A stretch of DNA of 64,000 nucleotides. It comes from Escherichia coli (GTDB lineage: Bacteria; Pseudomonadota; Gammaproteobacteria; Enterobacterales; Enterobacteriaceae). The position numbers were made by a program, and so were the translations under genes. The stretch lies in assembly GCF_024223415.1 (NCBI RefSeq), contig NZ_CP100500.1. The stretch is one strand, 5' to 3'. The notes under the pieces were generated by a model, which did not search any database, had not been told where the DNA came from, and saw only the letters and a program-made list of their open reading frames with translations. How positions within the stretch are numbered: the first letter of the stretch is position 1; every line of letters starts with the position of its first letter. Of this stretch, positions 37,482-64,000 are shown one piece after another.

Positions 37482-37631
37482 TGCATGAAGCTGCCAAATG
37501 ATGTCAACGTGGCTCATTTAGCAGCTTAACATCATCTTCAGTTATCACCGGCCCTGGAGAGTATCATCCATACGCATTACTTCCTGACAACTCATCGCCG
37601 GAGAGACGATGAGTTGCAGGATTTCATATGA

Positions 37632-39134
37632 TCAGTCGAGAGCTAACTCAGGTTTATTCGCCATGCGACTGCAATAGTTCTGGTAAATCGCCATCGCTAA
37701 CAGCGAGAAGAAGACAGGGCCGCCAATCATCCACAATGTGCTGTCCCAGTCTCCGGCTTCAACCACAGGCTGAATGATGGTGAAGACGTTCGCAAATGTC
37801 ACCACCAGTACGACAACCACTGTCGCAATCATTGCCGACAAATGCGTTTTGAAAATCACAAATGGTCTGTCGAGATCCTGACGTGCTTTAAAGAATGGGA
37901 AAGCCAGCGCGAGGAACAGGTAAGGAAGCGTCATAGACACGTTCGCCATCAGCGTCAGCTTGTTAAAGAACGCCGATGCGGTACCGCCACCAAACGAAAC
38001 CAGCAGGATGAAGACAGTAACCAACCCGCACTGCATCCACATGGCGATAGACGGCATCCCCATCGCATTCAGGCGCGTCATCGGTTCCGGCCACAACGCT
38101 TTCGGCGTCCCCTGGATGATGGCTTTCAGCGGTGAATAGCAAAGCGTAAAGAACGCACCGGTATAAGCGAGGAACATCGAAAGTCCGGTAATACGCGCAA
38201 ACCATACGCCCAGCGACAATGACGCTTCAGGTGACAAATGCAGTGCGTTACCCAGCGTCACCCCGAGGCTCTTCATCAGCACATAGGTAATATTGCCAAG
38301 GTTAACGGAACCATTACTTAATACCTGCTGCCAGTTTGTGCTGACGCCCCATAAAAATATTGCCAGCGAATAACCGATTGAAATAACAATAGCGGCAAAA
38401 ACAATACCTTTGGCAAAGTTCTTTTCTGGATTTTCCGTTTTATCGACCAGACCACCAACCGCTTCAATTCCGCCATAGGCAAAAATAGCAAATACCACAA
38501 ACGATAGCATTGCCAGACCGGACTGATAACCCGGGTTCGGCGATGCAAGGAAATTAATATCCTGCGCGAAATGCCCACCATTTAATAACAAAATAGTAAT
38601 GCTTACTAACAGCAATACTAAATTCAGACACATTACTGCAATACCGCCCACCGCAGTAATGCGGGCAATTTTATTAATCCCCTTAGAAGCAACGACGGTG
38701 ACCAGAATCATCCATGCCACTGCCAGCAGACCAACCACCTGCGTAGGCTCCAGTCCGGCAATACGCCAGTGCTGGGTCATGTCGCTACCATAGAGGAATG
38801 TTGAGAACGGTACCCAAACTTTCGCGGAGGTACTCACCATCCAGATGATATAAGAGGAAAACCACATAAACGTACCAATGAAGGCAAAACGTGGTCCGAC
38901 ACTATTATTCATCCAGGAATAGATACCACCTTCTTCTTTGCGATAAGCAGCTCCCATTTCAGCCATCATTAAGGCGAATGGAATAAAGAATAACAATGCA
39001 GAAAATATATAAAAGGGAATCGCACTATAACCCATTAAGTAATAAGCCGATGGGCTATTGGCAAATCCAAATACGGAAGTAAAGATCATCAATATGAGTC
39101 CTATCAGACTCATCTTTTTTATCGTGTGAGGCAT
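37632..39134 (-). CDS. yjeM: APC-superfamily amino-acid/polyamine transporter YjeM
   Basis: ORF 37632..39176(-) trimmed to MPHTIKKMSLIGLILMIFTSVFG, 500 aa, polytopic. Confidence 0.88.
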   Translation of the reverse strand: MPHTIKKMSLIGLILMIFTSVFGFANSPSAYYLMGYSAIPFYIFSALLFFIPFALMMAEMGAAYRKEEGGIYSWMNNSVGPRFAFIGTFMWFSSYIIWMVSTSAKVWVPFSTFLYGSDMTQHWRIAGLEPTQVVGLLAVAWMILVTVVASKGINKIARITAVGGIAVMCLNLVLLLVSITILLLNGGHFAQDINFLASPNPGYQSGLAMLSFVVFAIFAYGGIEAVGGLVDKTENPEKNFAKGIVFAAIVISIGYSLAIFLWGVSTNWQQVLSNGSVNLGNITYVLMKSLGVTLGNALHLSPEASLSLGVWFARITGLSMFLAYTGAFFTLCYSPLKAIIQGTPKALWPEPMTRLNAMGMPSIAMWMQCGLVTVFILLVSFGGGTASAFFNKLTLMANVSMTLPYLFLALAFPFFKARQDLDRPFVIFKTHLSAMIATVVVVLVVTFANVFTIIQPVVEAGDWDSTLWMIGGPVFFSLLAMAIYQNYCSRMANKPELALD

Positions 39135-46114: not shown

Positions 46115-46162
46115 TTGGGGCCGTCCCCGGTGAAAAGAGGCGTTTGCAGGTCGTCCTGCAAA
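46115..46162 (-). ncRNA. guanidine-II (mini-ykkC) riboswitch in the gdx 5' leader
   Basis: transcribed strand reads UUGCAGG-ACGA-CCUGCAA ... GGGG-ACGG-CCCC: two short GC-rich hairpins with ACGR tetraloops, directly upstream of the gdx RBS. Confidence 0.6.
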
Positions 46163-60296: not shown

Positions 60297-60372
60297 GCCC
60301 GGATAGCTCAGTCGGTAGAGCAGGGGATTGAAAATCCCCGTGTCCTTGGTTCGATTCCGAGTCCGGGCACCA
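60297..60372 (+). tRNA. pheU: tRNA-Phe (anticodon GAA)
   Basis: GCCCGGATAGCTCAGTCGGTAGAGCAGGGGATTGAAAATCCCCGTGTCCTTGGTTCGATTCCGAGTCCGGGCACCA; cloverleaf, GAA anticodon, encoded CCA. Confidence 0.95.
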
Positions 60373-60382
60373 AATTCATATA

Positions 60383-60409
60383 AACGGACCTCCACGGAGG
60401 TCCGTTTTT
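60383..60409 (+). terminator. intrinsic terminator of pheU
   Basis: cggacctcc-acgg-aggtccg hairpin followed by TTTTT, 10 nt after the tRNA CCA end. Confidence 0.6.
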
Positions 60410-60569
60410 CGTTTCAGGACGCCACGATTTAAGCGTCCTGCCGCCAAATCAATTCTACCGAACTCAACCAGACTCCCCCCACATCAACCCCATTGTGTGG
60501 GTATAATTGCGGGTATACCCCAGTTCGACAGAATTTGTACCCTCTTTAACGCATTCAGAAGGCTGAACT

Positions 60570-61832
60570 ATGGCACTGACTGACGCAAAAATCCGGGCTG
60601 CAAAGCACACTGACAAGGCTTATAAACTCACTGACGGGGCTGGCATGTTCCTGCTGGTACATCCTAATGGTTCCCGTTACTGGCGTCTCCGTTATCGCAT
60701 TCTGGGTAAGGAGAAAACTCTGGCACTTGGTGTATACCCGGAGGTTTCTCTCTCCGAAGCTCGTACAAAACGGGATGAGGCCCGAAAACTGATTTCGGAG
60801 GGGATTGACCCTTGCGAACAGAAAAGAGCTAAAAAAGTAGTCCCTGATTTACAACTCTCTTTTGAACATATTGCACGACGCTGGCATGCCAGTAATAAAC
60901 AATGGGCACAATCACACAGCGATAAGGTACTCAAAAGCCTCGAAACACACGTTTTCCCCTTTATCGGCAACCGGAACATCACAACACTCAATACCCCGGA
61001 CCTGCTTATCCCTGTTCGTGCTGCAGAAGCTAAACAAATTTATGAAATCGCCAGTCGTCTGCAGCAAAGAATATCTGCTGTAATGCGTTATGCCGTACAG
61101 TCTGGCATCATCAGATATAATCCTGCTCTGGATATGGCTGGCGCATTGACTACGGTAAAACGCCAGCATCGCCCCGCTCTTGATCTTTCTCGCCTGCCTG
61201 AACTTTTGTCGCGTATTGGCAGTTACAAGGGGCAACCTGTCACCCAGCTTGCCGTTATGCTGAATTTACTGGTTTTTATTCGTTCCAGTGAACTCAGATA
61301 CGCCCGCTGGTCTGAAATTGATATTGACAATGCCATGTGGACTATTCCAGCCGAACGCGAACCCCTGCCAGGCGTAAAATTCTCACACCGGGGCTCCAAG
61401 ATGCGAACACCACATCTTGTGCCACTCAGCAAACAGGCTGTAGCCATACTGACAGAACTACAGACATGGGCTGGTGAAAATGGTCTGATCTTTACGGGAG
61501 CACATGACCCGCGTAAACCAATCAGTGAAAATACTGTAAATAAAGCCCTGAGGGTGATGGGGTATGACACAACCCAGGATGTCTGTGGCCATGGATTCCG
61601 GGCGATGGCGTGCAGTGCATTGATTGAATCAGGTTTGTGGTCCCGCGATGCTGTGGAACGTCAGATGAGCCATCAGGAGCGTAATGGTGTACGTGCTGCG
61701 TATATCCATAAAGCAGAACATCTGGAAGAACGTCGACTGATGCTACAGTGGTGGGCAGATTTTCTGGATGCGAACAGAGATAAGGGTATCAGCCCGTTTG
61801 AATATGCAAAGATTAACAATCCATTAAAATAG
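60570..61832 (+). CDS. P4-type tyrosine recombinase (genomic-island integrase)
   Basis: ORF 420 aa MALTDAKIRAAKHTDKAYKLTDGAGMFLLVHPNGSRYWRLRYR..., Arm-binding N-terminus typical of P4-like Int; catalytic HGFR and downstream Tyr (RAAYIH) present; ~200 bp from tRNA-Phe 3' end. Confidence 0.9.
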   Translation: MALTDAKIRAAKHTDKAYKLTDGAGMFLLVHPNGSRYWRLRYRILGKEKTLALGVYPEVSLSEARTKRDEARKLISEGIDPCEQKRAKKVVPDLQLSFEHIARRWHASNKQWAQSHSDKVLKSLETHVFPFIGNRNITTLNTPDLLIPVRAAEAKQIYEIASRLQQRISAVMRYAVQSGIIRYNPALDMAGALTTVKRQHRPALDLSRLPELLSRIGSYKGQPVTQLAVMLNLLVFIRSSELRYARWSEIDIDNAMWTIPAEREPLPGVKFSHRGSKMRTPHLVPLSKQAVAILTELQTWAGENGLIFTGAHDPRKPISENTVNKALRVMGYDTTQDVCGHGFRAMACSALIESGLWSRDAVERQMSHQERNGVRAAYIHKAEHLEERRLMLQWWADFLDANRDKGISPFEYAKINNPLK

Positions 61833-61835
61833 TAA

Positions 61836-61880
61836 GCAGTCCGGGCTGATTGCCCGGACTGCTTTAACTGATTATTTTTC
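61836..61880 (+). terminator. putative intrinsic terminator after integrase gene
   Basis: gcagtccgggc-tgat-tgcccggactgc hairpin followed by a T-rich tract. Confidence 0.45.
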
Positions 61881-62097
61881 TTTGTAAATGATGACGAAGA
61901 TTGATGTTCTGGCAAGTTACTCCGGCTTCCATTAAAGTCCCTTCGTCATGTTCTTCAGGCTATTTATGACTGTGATTAGCACCAGGAATATCTGGTTTCC
62001 ATGAGAGCAGGTAATAACCCCCGGTGTTTTCGGCTGTTCTGGTATCCTTGTCCAACACAGGCAGTCATTATAAACGGTAAAAAATGTGGATTTGCCC

Positions 62098-63003
62098 CTA
62101 TATTTCCAGACATCTGTTATCACTTAACCCATTACAGGCCCGCTGCCGCAGATATTCCCGTGGCGAGCGATAACCCAACGCACTATGCGGATGCCATTCG
62201 TTATAATGCTCGAACGCCTCTGCAAGGTTCTTTGCTGCCGTTAACCCGTCTGGTTTGGGCATGACACTGATGTAGTCACGCTTTATCGTTTTCACGAAGC
62301 TCTCTGCTATGCCGTTACTCTCCGGACTCCGCACCGCCGTGTTCTTCGGTTCAAGCCCCAACATCCGGGCAAACTGCCGTGTTTCATTAGCCCGGTAGCA
62401 TGAACCATTATCCGTCAGCCACTCTACTGGAGACGCCGGAAGCTCGTTGCCGAAGCGGCGTTCCACCGCTCCTGGCATGACGTCCTGTACTGTTTCACTG
62501 TTGAAGCCGCCCGTAGTGACCGCCCAGTGCAGTGCCTCACGGTCACAGCAGTCCAGCGCGAACGTGACTCGCAGTTTTTCTCCGTTATCACAGCGGAACT
62601 CGAACCCGTCAGAGCACCATCGCTGATTACTTTCTTTCACAGCCACTCTGCCGGTATGTGCCCGTTTCGATGGCGGTACAGCGGTTTTTCGCTCAAGCAA
62701 CAGCGCATTCTGGCGCATGATCCGGTAAATACGTTTGGCATTGATCGCAGGCATACCATCAAGTTCTGTTTGTCTGCGAAGCAGCGCCCATACCCGACAA
62801 TAACCATATGTGGGTAGCTCTCCGATAACATGGTGTATACGGCGAAGCACATCCGTATCATCCGTGTGACGGCTGCGGCGGCCGTCCTTCCAGTCATCGG
62901 CTCGTCTGAGAATGACGTGCAACTGCGCACGCGACACCCGGAGACAACGGCTGACGAAGCTTACTCCCCATCCCCGGGCAATAAGGGCGCGTGCGCTATC
63001 CAC
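62098..63003 (-). CDS. insD: IS2 transposase OrfB (DDE integrase domain)
   Basis: ORF 301 aa [34 protein letters not shown]..., recognised as IS2 InsD. Confidence 0.92.
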
Positions 63004-63326
63004 TTTTTTGCTCGCCCATATTCAACGGCTTCTTTAAGGAGTTCATTTTCCATCGTTTTTTTGCCGAGCAGACGCTGGAGTTCTTTAATCTGCTTCATGG
63101 CGGCAGCAAGTTCAGAGGCAGGAACGACCTGTTCTCCGGCAGCCACAGCAGTAAGACTTCCCTCCTGGTATTGCTTACGCCAGAGAAATAGCTGGCTGGC
63201 TGCCACACCATGTTGCCGGGCAACAAGGGAGACCGTCATTCCCGGTTCAAAGCTCTGCTGAACGATAGCGATCTTTTCCTGTGTAGTACGCCGTCTGCGT
63301 TTCTCCGGCCCTAAGACATCAATCAT
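62961..63326 (-). CDS. insC: IS2 transposase OrfA (HTH)
   Basis: ORF 62961..63371(-) trimmed to [41 protein letters not shown], 121 aa; overlaps insD in the -1 frame. Confidence 0.9.
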
Positions 63327-63543
63327 CTGTTCTCCAATGACTAGTCTAAAAACTAGTATTAAGACTATCACTTATTTAAGTGATATTGGTTGTCTGGAGA
63401 TTCAGGGGGCCAGTCTAAAATGTATTCACTGTTATGAAATCAATAGTTCTGACGTACTGTTGAATGTGCTTGCGTTCTGAACCTTGTACAACCAGTACAT
63501 TTGATACCGAATTATAAACAAAACATTGCATCCAACTTTTTCA

Positions 63544-63566
63544 ATATGGACAATAGTTGTCCATAT
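63544..63566. promoter_or_regulatory. perfect 10-3-10 palindrome (ATATGGACAA-TAG-TTGTCCATAT), candidate operator upstream of the cargo ORF
   Basis: read directly from sequence ~55 bp upstream of the ATG at 63620, inside an AT-rich leader. Confidence 0.4.
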
Positions 63567-63619
63567 GGTGGTTTTATATTCGATAAATCAATGGATTTCA
63601 TTGAGTCATAGGACTGGTA

Positions 63620-64000
63620 ATGGATGAAAATGCTTTAGGGTTTGCCTCATACTGGCGCAACTCGCTTGCGGATGCTGAGTCAGGAAAGGGCAGTTTTGAA
63701 CGGAAAGACGCCAAAAATTTCACTCATTGGCATGGGATAGCGGCGGGACGTCTTGACGAAGCGATTGTCAGTAAATTTTTTAAGGGAGAAAAAGACGATG
63801 TCGAAACGGTCGATGTCATCTTGCGCCCAAAAGTTTATTTCCGGTTACTGCAGCATGGTAAGGACCGTTCTGCAGGTGCGCCTGATATTGTTACCCCGAT
63901 AGTGACGCCAGCCTTGCTAAGCCGTGAGGGTTTTTTATATCCGACGCCAGCGACCTCCATTCCCAGAGACCTGCTTGAACCTTTGCCAAAAGGAGCATTT
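63620..64000 (+). CDS. island cargo gene of unknown function (first 127 codons only; continues beyond window)
   Basis: open frame from ATG 63620 to the window end with no stop: MDENALGFASYWRNSLADAESGKGSFERKDAKNFTHWHGIAAGRLDEAIVSKFFKGEKDDVETVDVILRPKVYFRLLQHG...; not in ORF track because it is unterminated; I do not recognise the family. Confidence 0.5.
   Translation, partial: MDENALGFASYWRNSLADAESGKGSFERKDAKNFTHWHGIAAGRLDEAIVSKFFKGEKDDVETVDVILRPKVYFRLLQHGKDRSAGAPDIVTPIVTPALLSREGFLYPTPATSIPRDLLEPLPKGAF

Follow-up and report, generated by a model that had tools for sequence, protein, structure and literature searches.

The left end of a known intP4 island family at the pheU tRNA-Phe gene of Escherichia coli, with a predicted type II Mokosh gene as first cargo

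Results

An intP4 island at pheU

The final 3.7 kb of the 64,000-nucleotide stretch of E. coli DNA analysed here (contig NZ_CP100500.1; hereafter the window) is, with high confidence, the left (attL) end of a member of the well-known E. coli family of intP4 islands integrated at tRNA-Phe genes (GI-pheU/GI-pheV), of which the APEC O1 pheV island and the O104:H4 pheU island are examples. It shares with the GI-pheV and GI-pheU islands its position directly 3' of tRNA-Phe, the intP4 integrase and the head module, and differs from them by lying at pheU, in comparison with the better-studied pheV of the known intP4 islands, and by an IS2 element that has inserted between int and the gene that follows it. 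Judged from its sequence, this following gene, the first of the cargo, is mkoC, a single-gene type II Mokosh defence system. The features of this end of the window are collected in Table 1.

Table 1. Features of the tRNA-Phe gene and the island head in the window
Feature	Position	Strand	Evidence or remark
tRNA-Phe(GAA), pheU copy, integration target	60297..60372	+	ARAGORN; Rfam RF00005, 68.3 bits
attL core, last 23 nt of tRNA-Phe, TTCGATTCCGAGTCCGGGCACCA	60350..60372	+	single copy in window
Hairpin with T-run, likely pheU terminator	60382..60407	+	terminator-like site, 11 pairs
intP4-type tyrosine integrase, 420 aa, apparently intact	60570..61832	+	Pfam; alignment with P4 Int
Hairpin with 13-bp stem, directly 3' of integrase stop	61834..61864	.	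terminator-like site
IS2 target-site duplication AAATG, left copy	62082..62086	.	sequence read directly
IS2 (IS3 family), complete, 1331 bp	62087..63417	-	termini TGGATTTGCCCC... and ...GGGGGCCAGTCTA
IS2 target-site duplication AAATG, right copy	63418..63422	.	sequence read directly
Perfect palindrome ATATGGACAATAGTTGTCCATAT, 54-76 bp upstream of mkoC	63544..63566	+	10-pair stem
mkoC, 5' end, 127 codons, runs off the window	63620..64000	+	PADLOC MkoC

The dsbD-yjdC/dicD context of the tRNA gene is collinear with that of K-12 pheU. An earlier sequence-only reading of the window had proposed conserved core up to tRNA-Phe followed by an island, and both parts of this proposal were borne out: between ulaE and pheU the core follows the K-12 gene order, apart from the missing yjeN-yjeO, and the pheU site is followed by accessory DNA, int starting directly downstream of the end of the tRNA gene. 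The hairpin of the likely pheU terminator falls within 60373-60505, a stretch common to the window and to the K-12 pheU-yjdQ remnant. Rfam searches returned tRNA-Phe alone between 59000 and 64000 and nothing unexpected over the whole window. The GC content drops modestly, from 50-58% in the preceding core to 44-49% over int and the mkoC start.

The integrase and the IS2 insertion

The integrase had been read as an apparently intact member of the P4 family, and the detailed analysis agrees. All three domains of the P4 type are found (Arm-DNA-bind_3, PF13356, 3e-29; Phage_int_M, PF22022, 2.3e-27; Phage_integrase, PF00589, 1.9e-16), and none of the catalytic residues (R238, K277, H341, R344, H368 and Y378) varies in an alignment with P4 Int and the Int of APEC O1. 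Over 410 aa the protein shares 54% identity and 73% positives with phage P4 Int (E 8e-172); the two enzymes have in common the three domains, the catalytic residues and the use of a tRNA 3' end as target. They differ in that P4 integrates at leuX as a satellite of 11.6 kb, whereas the window integrase is found at tRNA-Phe and belongs to islands that, in the two relatives measured, span 56-90 kb and are devoid of P4 genes. At the nucleotide level int is identical in E41 and AR_0085, and alleles from APEC O1, C227-11, A2, 26561, Br_112_kylling, E41 and AR_0085 range from 95.5 to 100% identity. The integrase of the window is presumably still active; that an identical IS2-marked head is found at pheV in E41 but at pheU in the window and in AR_0085 speaks for this indirectly. 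The hairpin directly behind its stop codon suggests that int and mkoC may form separate transcription units; no excisionase or regulator gene was seen in the int-mkoC spacer, which holds only unannotated, unsupported ORFs of 25-87 aa.

The element in this spacer is indeed a complete IS2, as had been proposed from the sequence: it is bounded by both copies of the AAATG duplication, and its ORFs of 301 aa and 136 aa (121 aa from ATG) are intact and overlap, with an A6G slippery site for a -1 frameshift. Length, termini, the two overlapping ORFs, the A6G site and the 5-bp duplication are all those of the K-12 element. The identity to K-12 IS2A is 95.9% over the 1239 bp compared, which would fit a sequence variant of IS2; the identical copy in E41 carries the RefSeq label of an IS3 family transposase with programmed frameshift. 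Br_112_kylling retains the uninterrupted target with one AAATG. Only a handful of genomes carry IS2 in the int-mkoC spacer, E41 (at pheV) and AR_0085 (at pheU) among them.

The first cargo gene is predicted to be mkoC

The sequence-only reading had noted the start of a cargo gene that continues beyond the window and had called the cargo unknown. The first statement holds, the open reading frame of 127 codons running to the last base of the window, and the second does not, the predicted product being 97.6% identical, over the 127 residues visible, to a validated defence protein. The window fragment matches the PADLOC MkoC profile with an E value of 3.7e-40, its residues 1-127 falling on profile positions 1-131. 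The E41 protein begins with the same 127 residues; its full-length score against this profile is 1691.7 bits, residues 1-1169 aligning with positions 1-1135/1136. MkoC is 1171 aa long in the relatives; in E41 it bears the Pfam domains AAA_11, AAA_12 and PLDc_2, i.e., a SF1/Upf1-like helicase with a C-terminal PLD nuclease, with a Walker A motif GPPGTGKT at 295 and an HKD motif HSKIVIGD at 1114, the counterpart region lying beyond base 64000 in the window genome. No solved structure was found for MkoC, and the structural matches are only to the helicase cores of Upf1, DNA2 and SMUBP-2.

The validated protein is SG150, the type II Mokosh system of E. coli 5-366-08_S1_C1 (1171 aa; Millman et al. 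2022, 10.1101/2022.05.11.491447), from which the window fragment differs at 3 out of 127 residues and the E41 protein at 16 out of 399 (96% identity). Defence by Mokosh II is lost in mutants of the helicase ATP site and of the PLD active site (Millman et al., 10.1101/2022.05.11.491447), and EcMokosh II has been described as a 132-kDa monomer that protects against SECphi17 only, among the phages tested (10.1101/2025.07.10.664194). The start codon and the proximal upstream region are the same in SG150 and, judged from the full-length relative, so are the length and the helicase plus PLD architecture. The likeness extends into DNA, where the insert of the validated Mokosh II clone aligns with positions 63475-63692 of the window at 89% identity; the palindrome upstream of mkoC, which may be an operator, falls in this alignable stretch. 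Farther than about 145 bp from the start codon, the upstream DNA of the window is unrelated to that of the SG150 clone, and IS2 lies 202 bp upstream of this codon. Because only the proximal 145 bp are common with the functional SG150 construct, the IS2 insertion may affect the expression of mkoC. A consensus scan for promoters returned 3 sites versus 4.8 expected by chance, and no promoter is therefore claimed. In the window strain mkoC is presumably both complete and expressed.

Among 5426 complete E. coli genomes, mkoC was found in 888 (about 16%), and 839 of these retain 80% or more of its length; in some relatives it is frameshifted or interrupted by an IS. RefSeq names it either 'AAA domain-containing protein' or 'DNA helicase'.

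Relatives, island bodies and the far attachment repeat

An intact int-mkoC junction was detected in 716 of the 5426 complete genomes, at pheU or at pheV, and in most of the genomes that carry mkoC it leads the cargo of a pheU/pheV island. Relatives with the int-mkoC head at pheU include AR_0085, Br_112_kylling, 26561, A2 and O104:H4 C227-11, while E41 and APEC O1 have it at pheV. The head module, made of int, mkoC, a phosphoethanolamine transferase gene and a gene for a tia-like outer membrane protein, is shared over about 7.5-8 kb; known modules encountered in the islands with this head comprise the phosphoethanolamine transferase, the tia-like outer membrane protein, PhoX, iha, aerobactin, sit, pap and the yee module. 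In A2, a truncated second integrase lies directly behind the head.

In the relatives the island body is a patchwork of virulence and fitness modules that are already known, and none of the seven proteins tested as further defence genes in these bodies gave a PADLOC match. The earlier reading expected the body of the island to be the place for a novel system, and islands that begin with this head give little encouragement to that view. The island body of the window strain beyond base 64000 might carry an undescribed system.

The sequence-only reading had also placed the far attachment repeat outside the window, and a search of the whole 64 kb with up to 4 errors allowed returned the 3' end of tRNA-Phe only once. 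With the same tolerance the repeat was absent from the first 20-50 kb of the islands of six relatives. In the window strain the far repeat would be expected to read TTCGATTCCGAGTCCGG(G)CACCA, ahead of cadC. Two islands at pheV were followed to their end: that of E41 measures 90.4 kb and closes with a perfect 23-nt attR equal to the last 23 nt of tRNA-Phe, and that of APEC O1 measures 55.9 kb with a 22-nt attR. Repeats of 23 bp and 19 bp have been reported for such islands (PMC11537424).

Probable recent acquisition and alternative readings of the locus

Seven genomes are 100% identical to the window over 24.3 kb of adjacent core, and none of the seven is among the records with this island head at pheU. 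The E41 head, IS2 included, is 100% identical to the window from the tRNA onward, but it sits at pheV. Together these two observations point to a recent horizontal acquisition. Br_112_kylling differs from the window by 1 mismatch in about 2.3 kb of island head and by 13 in 800 bp of flanking core. The fall in GC, from about 52-57% for the core to 44-49% for int and mkoC, likewise speaks for acquisition. The whole arrangement of core plus island has no exact match in the 5426 complete genomes, the best being AR_0085 with 99.3% identity.

The same observations could be explained by an assembly chimera, in which short reads would have joined the upstream core of pheU to an island truly located at pheV, the 76-nt tRNA gene being identical at the two loci; the perfect match to the E41 pheV island and the lack of the head at pheU in the core-identical genomes, of which the one inspected has a nearly empty pheU, are what such a join would leave. 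We consider this improbable. The closed genome AR_0085 has the same IS2 insertion at pheU, and Br_112_kylling, 26561, A2 and C227-11 have the same head there, so that closed genomes establish the arrangement as biologically normal; moreover, modern assemblies would seldom be misled by an identical repeat as short as about 76 nt.

It is still less probable that the window holds an integrase remnant and an IS without a real island, core genes resuming just past its end, an outcome (cadC side within a few hundred bp) that the sequence-only reading had itself named as fatal to the island. This scenario fits K-12, where the remnant yjdQ is followed by cadC, and it fits the closest core relatives; NCTC10444 (the core-identical genome inspected) has only an integrase remnant before cadC. 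Large IS-mediated deletions soon after the head also occur in some relatives, AR_0085 having lost everything after the phosphoethanolamine transferase gene and GPEC1031 losing homology to the window at the end of IS2. It does not fit the window. The window integrase, unlike yjdQ, has its full length and its complete set of catalytic residues, the non-core DNA already amounts to 3.6 kb before the window ends and takes in an intact mkoC 5' end, and the large majority of genomes carrying mkoC keep at least 80% of the gene, as given above.

An integrated P4-like satellite phage or prophage in place of a genomic island is very improbable: the integrase resembles P4 Int, and defence genes are known to travel on P4-like satellites, but in 7/7 relatives the genes after int are mkoC, the phosphoethanolamine transferase gene, the outer membrane protein gene, IS remnants and virulence or fitness modules, no homologue of P4 alpha primase, cI, epsilon, sid, delta or psu was found in the seven relatives inspected, and the 56-90 kb of the two islands measured are far from the 11.6 kb of P4.

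Discussion

The reading of the locus as the attL end of an intP4 tRNA-Phe island places it in a family that is already described and common, and the island is real but ordinary. Islands of GI-pheV classified by intP4 have been described (PMC11537424), and a 'putative DNA helicase' is reported there in the intP4.5 islands (PMC11537424); this 'putative DNA helicase' of the GI-pheV literature appears to be the same gene as mkoC.

The arrangement suggests a simple course of events. The P4-family integrase would recombine the attachment site of the island with the last 23 nt or so of tRNA-Phe, and integration would restore the tRNA gene and leave the integrase as the first gene of the island; the target being the same in pheU and pheV, the island can occupy either locus. 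After integration, IS2 would have landed in the 454 bp that separate int from mkoC, duplicating AAATG and leaving both genes uninterrupted. The first cargo gene behind it, mkoC, would encode an N-terminal domain of unknown function, a SF1/Upf1-like helicase and a C-terminal PLD nuclease.

It is tempting to go one step further and to regard the 7.5-8-kb head (int, mkoC, phosphoethanolamine transferase and tia-like outer membrane protein) as an autonomous and still mobile mini-island. Three hints lead to this view: not a single base separates the IS2-marked head of the window, at pheU, from that of E41, at pheV, the head is common to islands whose bodies are unrelated, and in A2 it is directly followed by the truncated second integrase. 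We hold this to be unlikely. If true, the head would move from one of the two identical tRNA-Phe targets to the other and insert ahead of islands already in place, and the big 'mosaic' islands of pheU and pheV would be tandem accretions with a defence cassette in front.

For the annotation of E. coli genomes, the 'helicase' labels of mkoC can be corrected to the name of a validated type II Mokosh gene; the identification matters little otherwise. An identical IS2-tagged head found at two tRNA-Phe loci in unrelated strains constitutes a small, clean marker of recent island movement, and as such it could be used to study the spread of pheU/pheV islands.

The tRNA-Phe site and its integrase

Local BLAST shows the window to be collinear with K-12 from ulaE to pheU at 97.9-98.9% identity, with missing yjeN-yjeO as the sole structural difference, which bears out the sequence-only reading that everything up to the tRNA-Phe is conserved core. 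Between mscM and yjeM, 187 bp of unrelated DNA (37482-37668) replace the 743 bp of K-12 yjeN-yjeO, and a Guanidine-II (mini-ykkC) riboswitch, a known element, lies 5' of sugE/gdx (46116-46162, minus strand, 50.4 bits). Because of this collinearity and of dsbD and yjdC/dicD preceding it, the tRNA-Phe, present as that reading had stated, is pheU. K-12 homology runs 114-133 bp beyond the tRNA and ends at about 60486-60505, where K-12 carries yjdQ, an integrase pseudogene of 163 bp, followed by cadC; GC is modestly lower across the core/island junction.

The integrase was rightly described as an intact member of the P4 family. It bears the three Pfam domains characteristic of P4-type integrases, aligns across 410 residues with phage P4 Int at 54% identity (E 8e-172) and retains R238, K277, H341, R344, H368 and Y378; we predict that it is active. 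At the nucleotide level, E41 and AR_0085 carry exactly this integrase gene, and those of five other pheU/pheV islands are 95.5-99.9% identical to it; it is the 'intP4' gene by which GI-pheV islands are classified (PMC11537424).

Features of the pheU island head in the window and of related islands
Feature	Coordinates	Remarks
tRNA-Phe(GAA)	60297-60372	ARAGORN and Rfam
Hairpin and T-run	60382-60407	3' of tRNA-Phe
Integrase ORF	60570-61832	420 aa
IS2	62087-63417	1331 bp, IS2 termini; minus strand
Cargo ORF (mkoC 5' end)	63620 to window end	127 codons
E41 far repeat	NZ_CP069707.1 803,708-803,730 (L017 28709-28731)	perfect 23-bp direct repeats flank pheV island
Island body, APEC O1 and 26561		pap fimbriae
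Island body, E41 and Br_112_kylling		PhoX, ICE remnants, iha
Island body, farther along in E41		ibrAB, sitABCD, aerobactin genes, CP4-44-like yee module
Island body, A2		type I restriction-modification, CDI, dGTPase
Island body, C227-11		sigA

A type II Mokosh gene as first cargo

The cargo gene does start after IS2 and run off the window, as had been noted, but it is not the unknown cargo it was taken for. Its 127 residues match the PADLOC MkoC model (E 3.7e-40) and differ at only three positions from the printed N-terminus of SG150, the verified type II Mokosh system of E. coli 5-366-08_S1_C1, a 1171-aa MkoC (supplement, Millman et al., 10.1101/2022.05.11.491447); from 63475 on, the window and the cloned SG150 insert align at 89% identity. 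Between the tRNA and position 64000, E41 and the window do not differ at a single base, and the full-length mkoC of E41 encodes 1171 aa with an end-to-end MkoC match (1691.7 bits), differing from the printed SG150 N-terminus at 16 of 399 residues. This protein combines an AAA_11/AAA_12 SF1 helicase (Walker A at residue 295) with a C-terminal PLD domain (HKD at residue 1114). The structure search found no solved MkoC structure, the closest being Upf1-family helicases. Mutation of the helicase ATP site or of the PLD active site abolishes defence (10.1101/2022.05.11.491447), and, of the phages tested against EcMokosh II, a 132-kDa monomer, it gave protection only from SECphi17, an ssDNA phage (2025 preprint). 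The window allele is presumably expressed.

A perfect palindrome with 10-bp arms, ATATGGACAATAGTTGTCCATAT (63544-63566), lies 54-76 bp 5' of the mkoC start codon, is partly conserved in the cloned, validated Mokosh II insert and may be an operator for a regulator. In C227-11 (O104:H4, 2011 outbreak strain; stretch L015, 12001-15517) the pheU mkoC is annotated as frameshifted in this assembly.

The island family

Among 5426 complete E. coli genomes, mkoC occurs in 888, chromosomally in every case, and the uninterrupted int-mkoC junction in 716. The same head sits at pheU in AR_0085, Br_112_kylling, 26561, A2 and C227-11, and at pheV in E41 and APEC O1. It is conserved over 7.5-8 kb and holds int, mkoC and a phosphoethanolamine transferase gene, to which most of these relatives add a gene for a tia-like outer membrane protein; beyond it the islands differ, and the content past base 64000 in our strain is inferred. 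PADLOC returned no match for seven further proteins from the island bodies of E41 and Br_112_kylling.

In A2, the C-terminal fragment of a second P4-like integrase (L014 8960-9144, about 78% nucleotide identity) directly follows the 8-kb head and precedes type I restriction-modification, AAA ATPase, CDI, reverse-transcriptase-domain and dGTPase-family genes, an arrangement that suggests tandem island accretion. Large IS-associated deletions remove the right side of the island plus core DNA in Br_112_kylling (L003/L004), where iha adjoins truncated yjdN and cadCBA through yjdM are missing (about 40 kb of core in K-12), and in AR_0085 (L002), where ISVsa5 links the phosphoethanolamine transferase gene to a truncated LacI-family regulator gene and idnT.

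The far attachment repeat was correctly said to lie outside the window, which holds no second copy of the tRNA 3' end even with four errors allowed; the far repeat that the sequence-only reading advised seeking is found in relatives. That of APEC O1 is an imperfect 22-nt copy 55.9 kb from pheV, consistent with Table 1 of PMC11537424. In E41 the copy lies beside core yghD and delimits a 90.4-kb island, which, being flanked by perfect direct repeats, may be excisable.

IS2 insertion and probable recent horizontal movement between tRNA-Phe loci

IS2 is complete, as had been read: its 301-aa and 136-aa (121 aa from ATG) ORFs overlap at an A6G slippery site, and AAATG stands on either side. Since the spacer is uninterrupted in Br_112_kylling, with AAATG once, we conclude that IS2 entered the 454-bp int-mkoC spacer by simple transposition, 254 bp 3' of the int stop codon and 202 bp 5' of the mkoC start codon. 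The window copy is 95.9% identical to K-12 IS2A; E41 and AR_0085 share this insertion, as may a few other genomes.

At this site, AR_0085 IS2 (L002; window 62342-63038) shows 21 clustered differences from the window copy within identical flanking island DNA, a pattern suggestive of gene conversion from a different IS2 copy. GPEC1031 (NZ_CM142797.1) is homologous to the window (99.3%) precisely as far as the end of IS2 (63417), and the matching part carries no annotated AAA-domain (mkoC) gene, which suggests that an IS2-mediated rearrangement deleted mkoC. The uninterrupted spacer also contains an unannotated 87-aa ORF (L003 23133-23396, minus strand), split by the window IS2 (61932-62086 plus 63418 onward); no support for its being a gene was found.

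Across the 24.3 kb of core preceding the tRNA, seven complete genomes show 100% identity to the window. None of the seven is among the records with this island head, where top rank would be expected, and the one inspected, NCTC10444, is K-12-like, its integrase fragment being frameshifted and followed by cadC; therefore the head is missing from pheU in the nearest core relatives, the comparison with an empty site that the sequence-only reading had proposed. Against Br_112_kylling, the window has one mismatch in about 2.3 kb of island head and 13 in the 800 bp of core preceding the tRNA; against E41, whose island is at pheV, the nine mismatches are confined to sequence upstream of the tRNA, and the 3.6 kb of island is free of them. 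This distribution, together with the shared IS2, indicates that one IS2 event tags a head now found at two tRNA-Phe loci in unrelated backgrounds. The simplest explanation is integrase-mediated integration into the identical target, the alternative being recombination between resident islands. A mis-join of pheU and pheV during assembly, though possible, need not be invoked, as this arrangement recurs at pheU in closed genomes. The intact integrase and the beginning of mkoC in the window contradict a mere integrase remnant before cadC, and the genes and sizes of the islands in relatives contradict a P4-like satellite.

The island would have arisen by site-specific integration into the tRNA-Phe 3' end, a step backed by island anatomy and by the established knowledge of P4-type integrases, IS2 would have transposed after integration, and the first cargo would act as a helicase-nuclease defence gene. 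What the sequence-only reading observed is confirmed and its interpretation is supported; the island nevertheless belongs to a known family and carries a known, validated defence gene. Only two points are mildly new: the 'putative helicase' of these islands can be re-annotated as MkoC, and the IS2 tag gives evidence for island movement between pheV and pheU.
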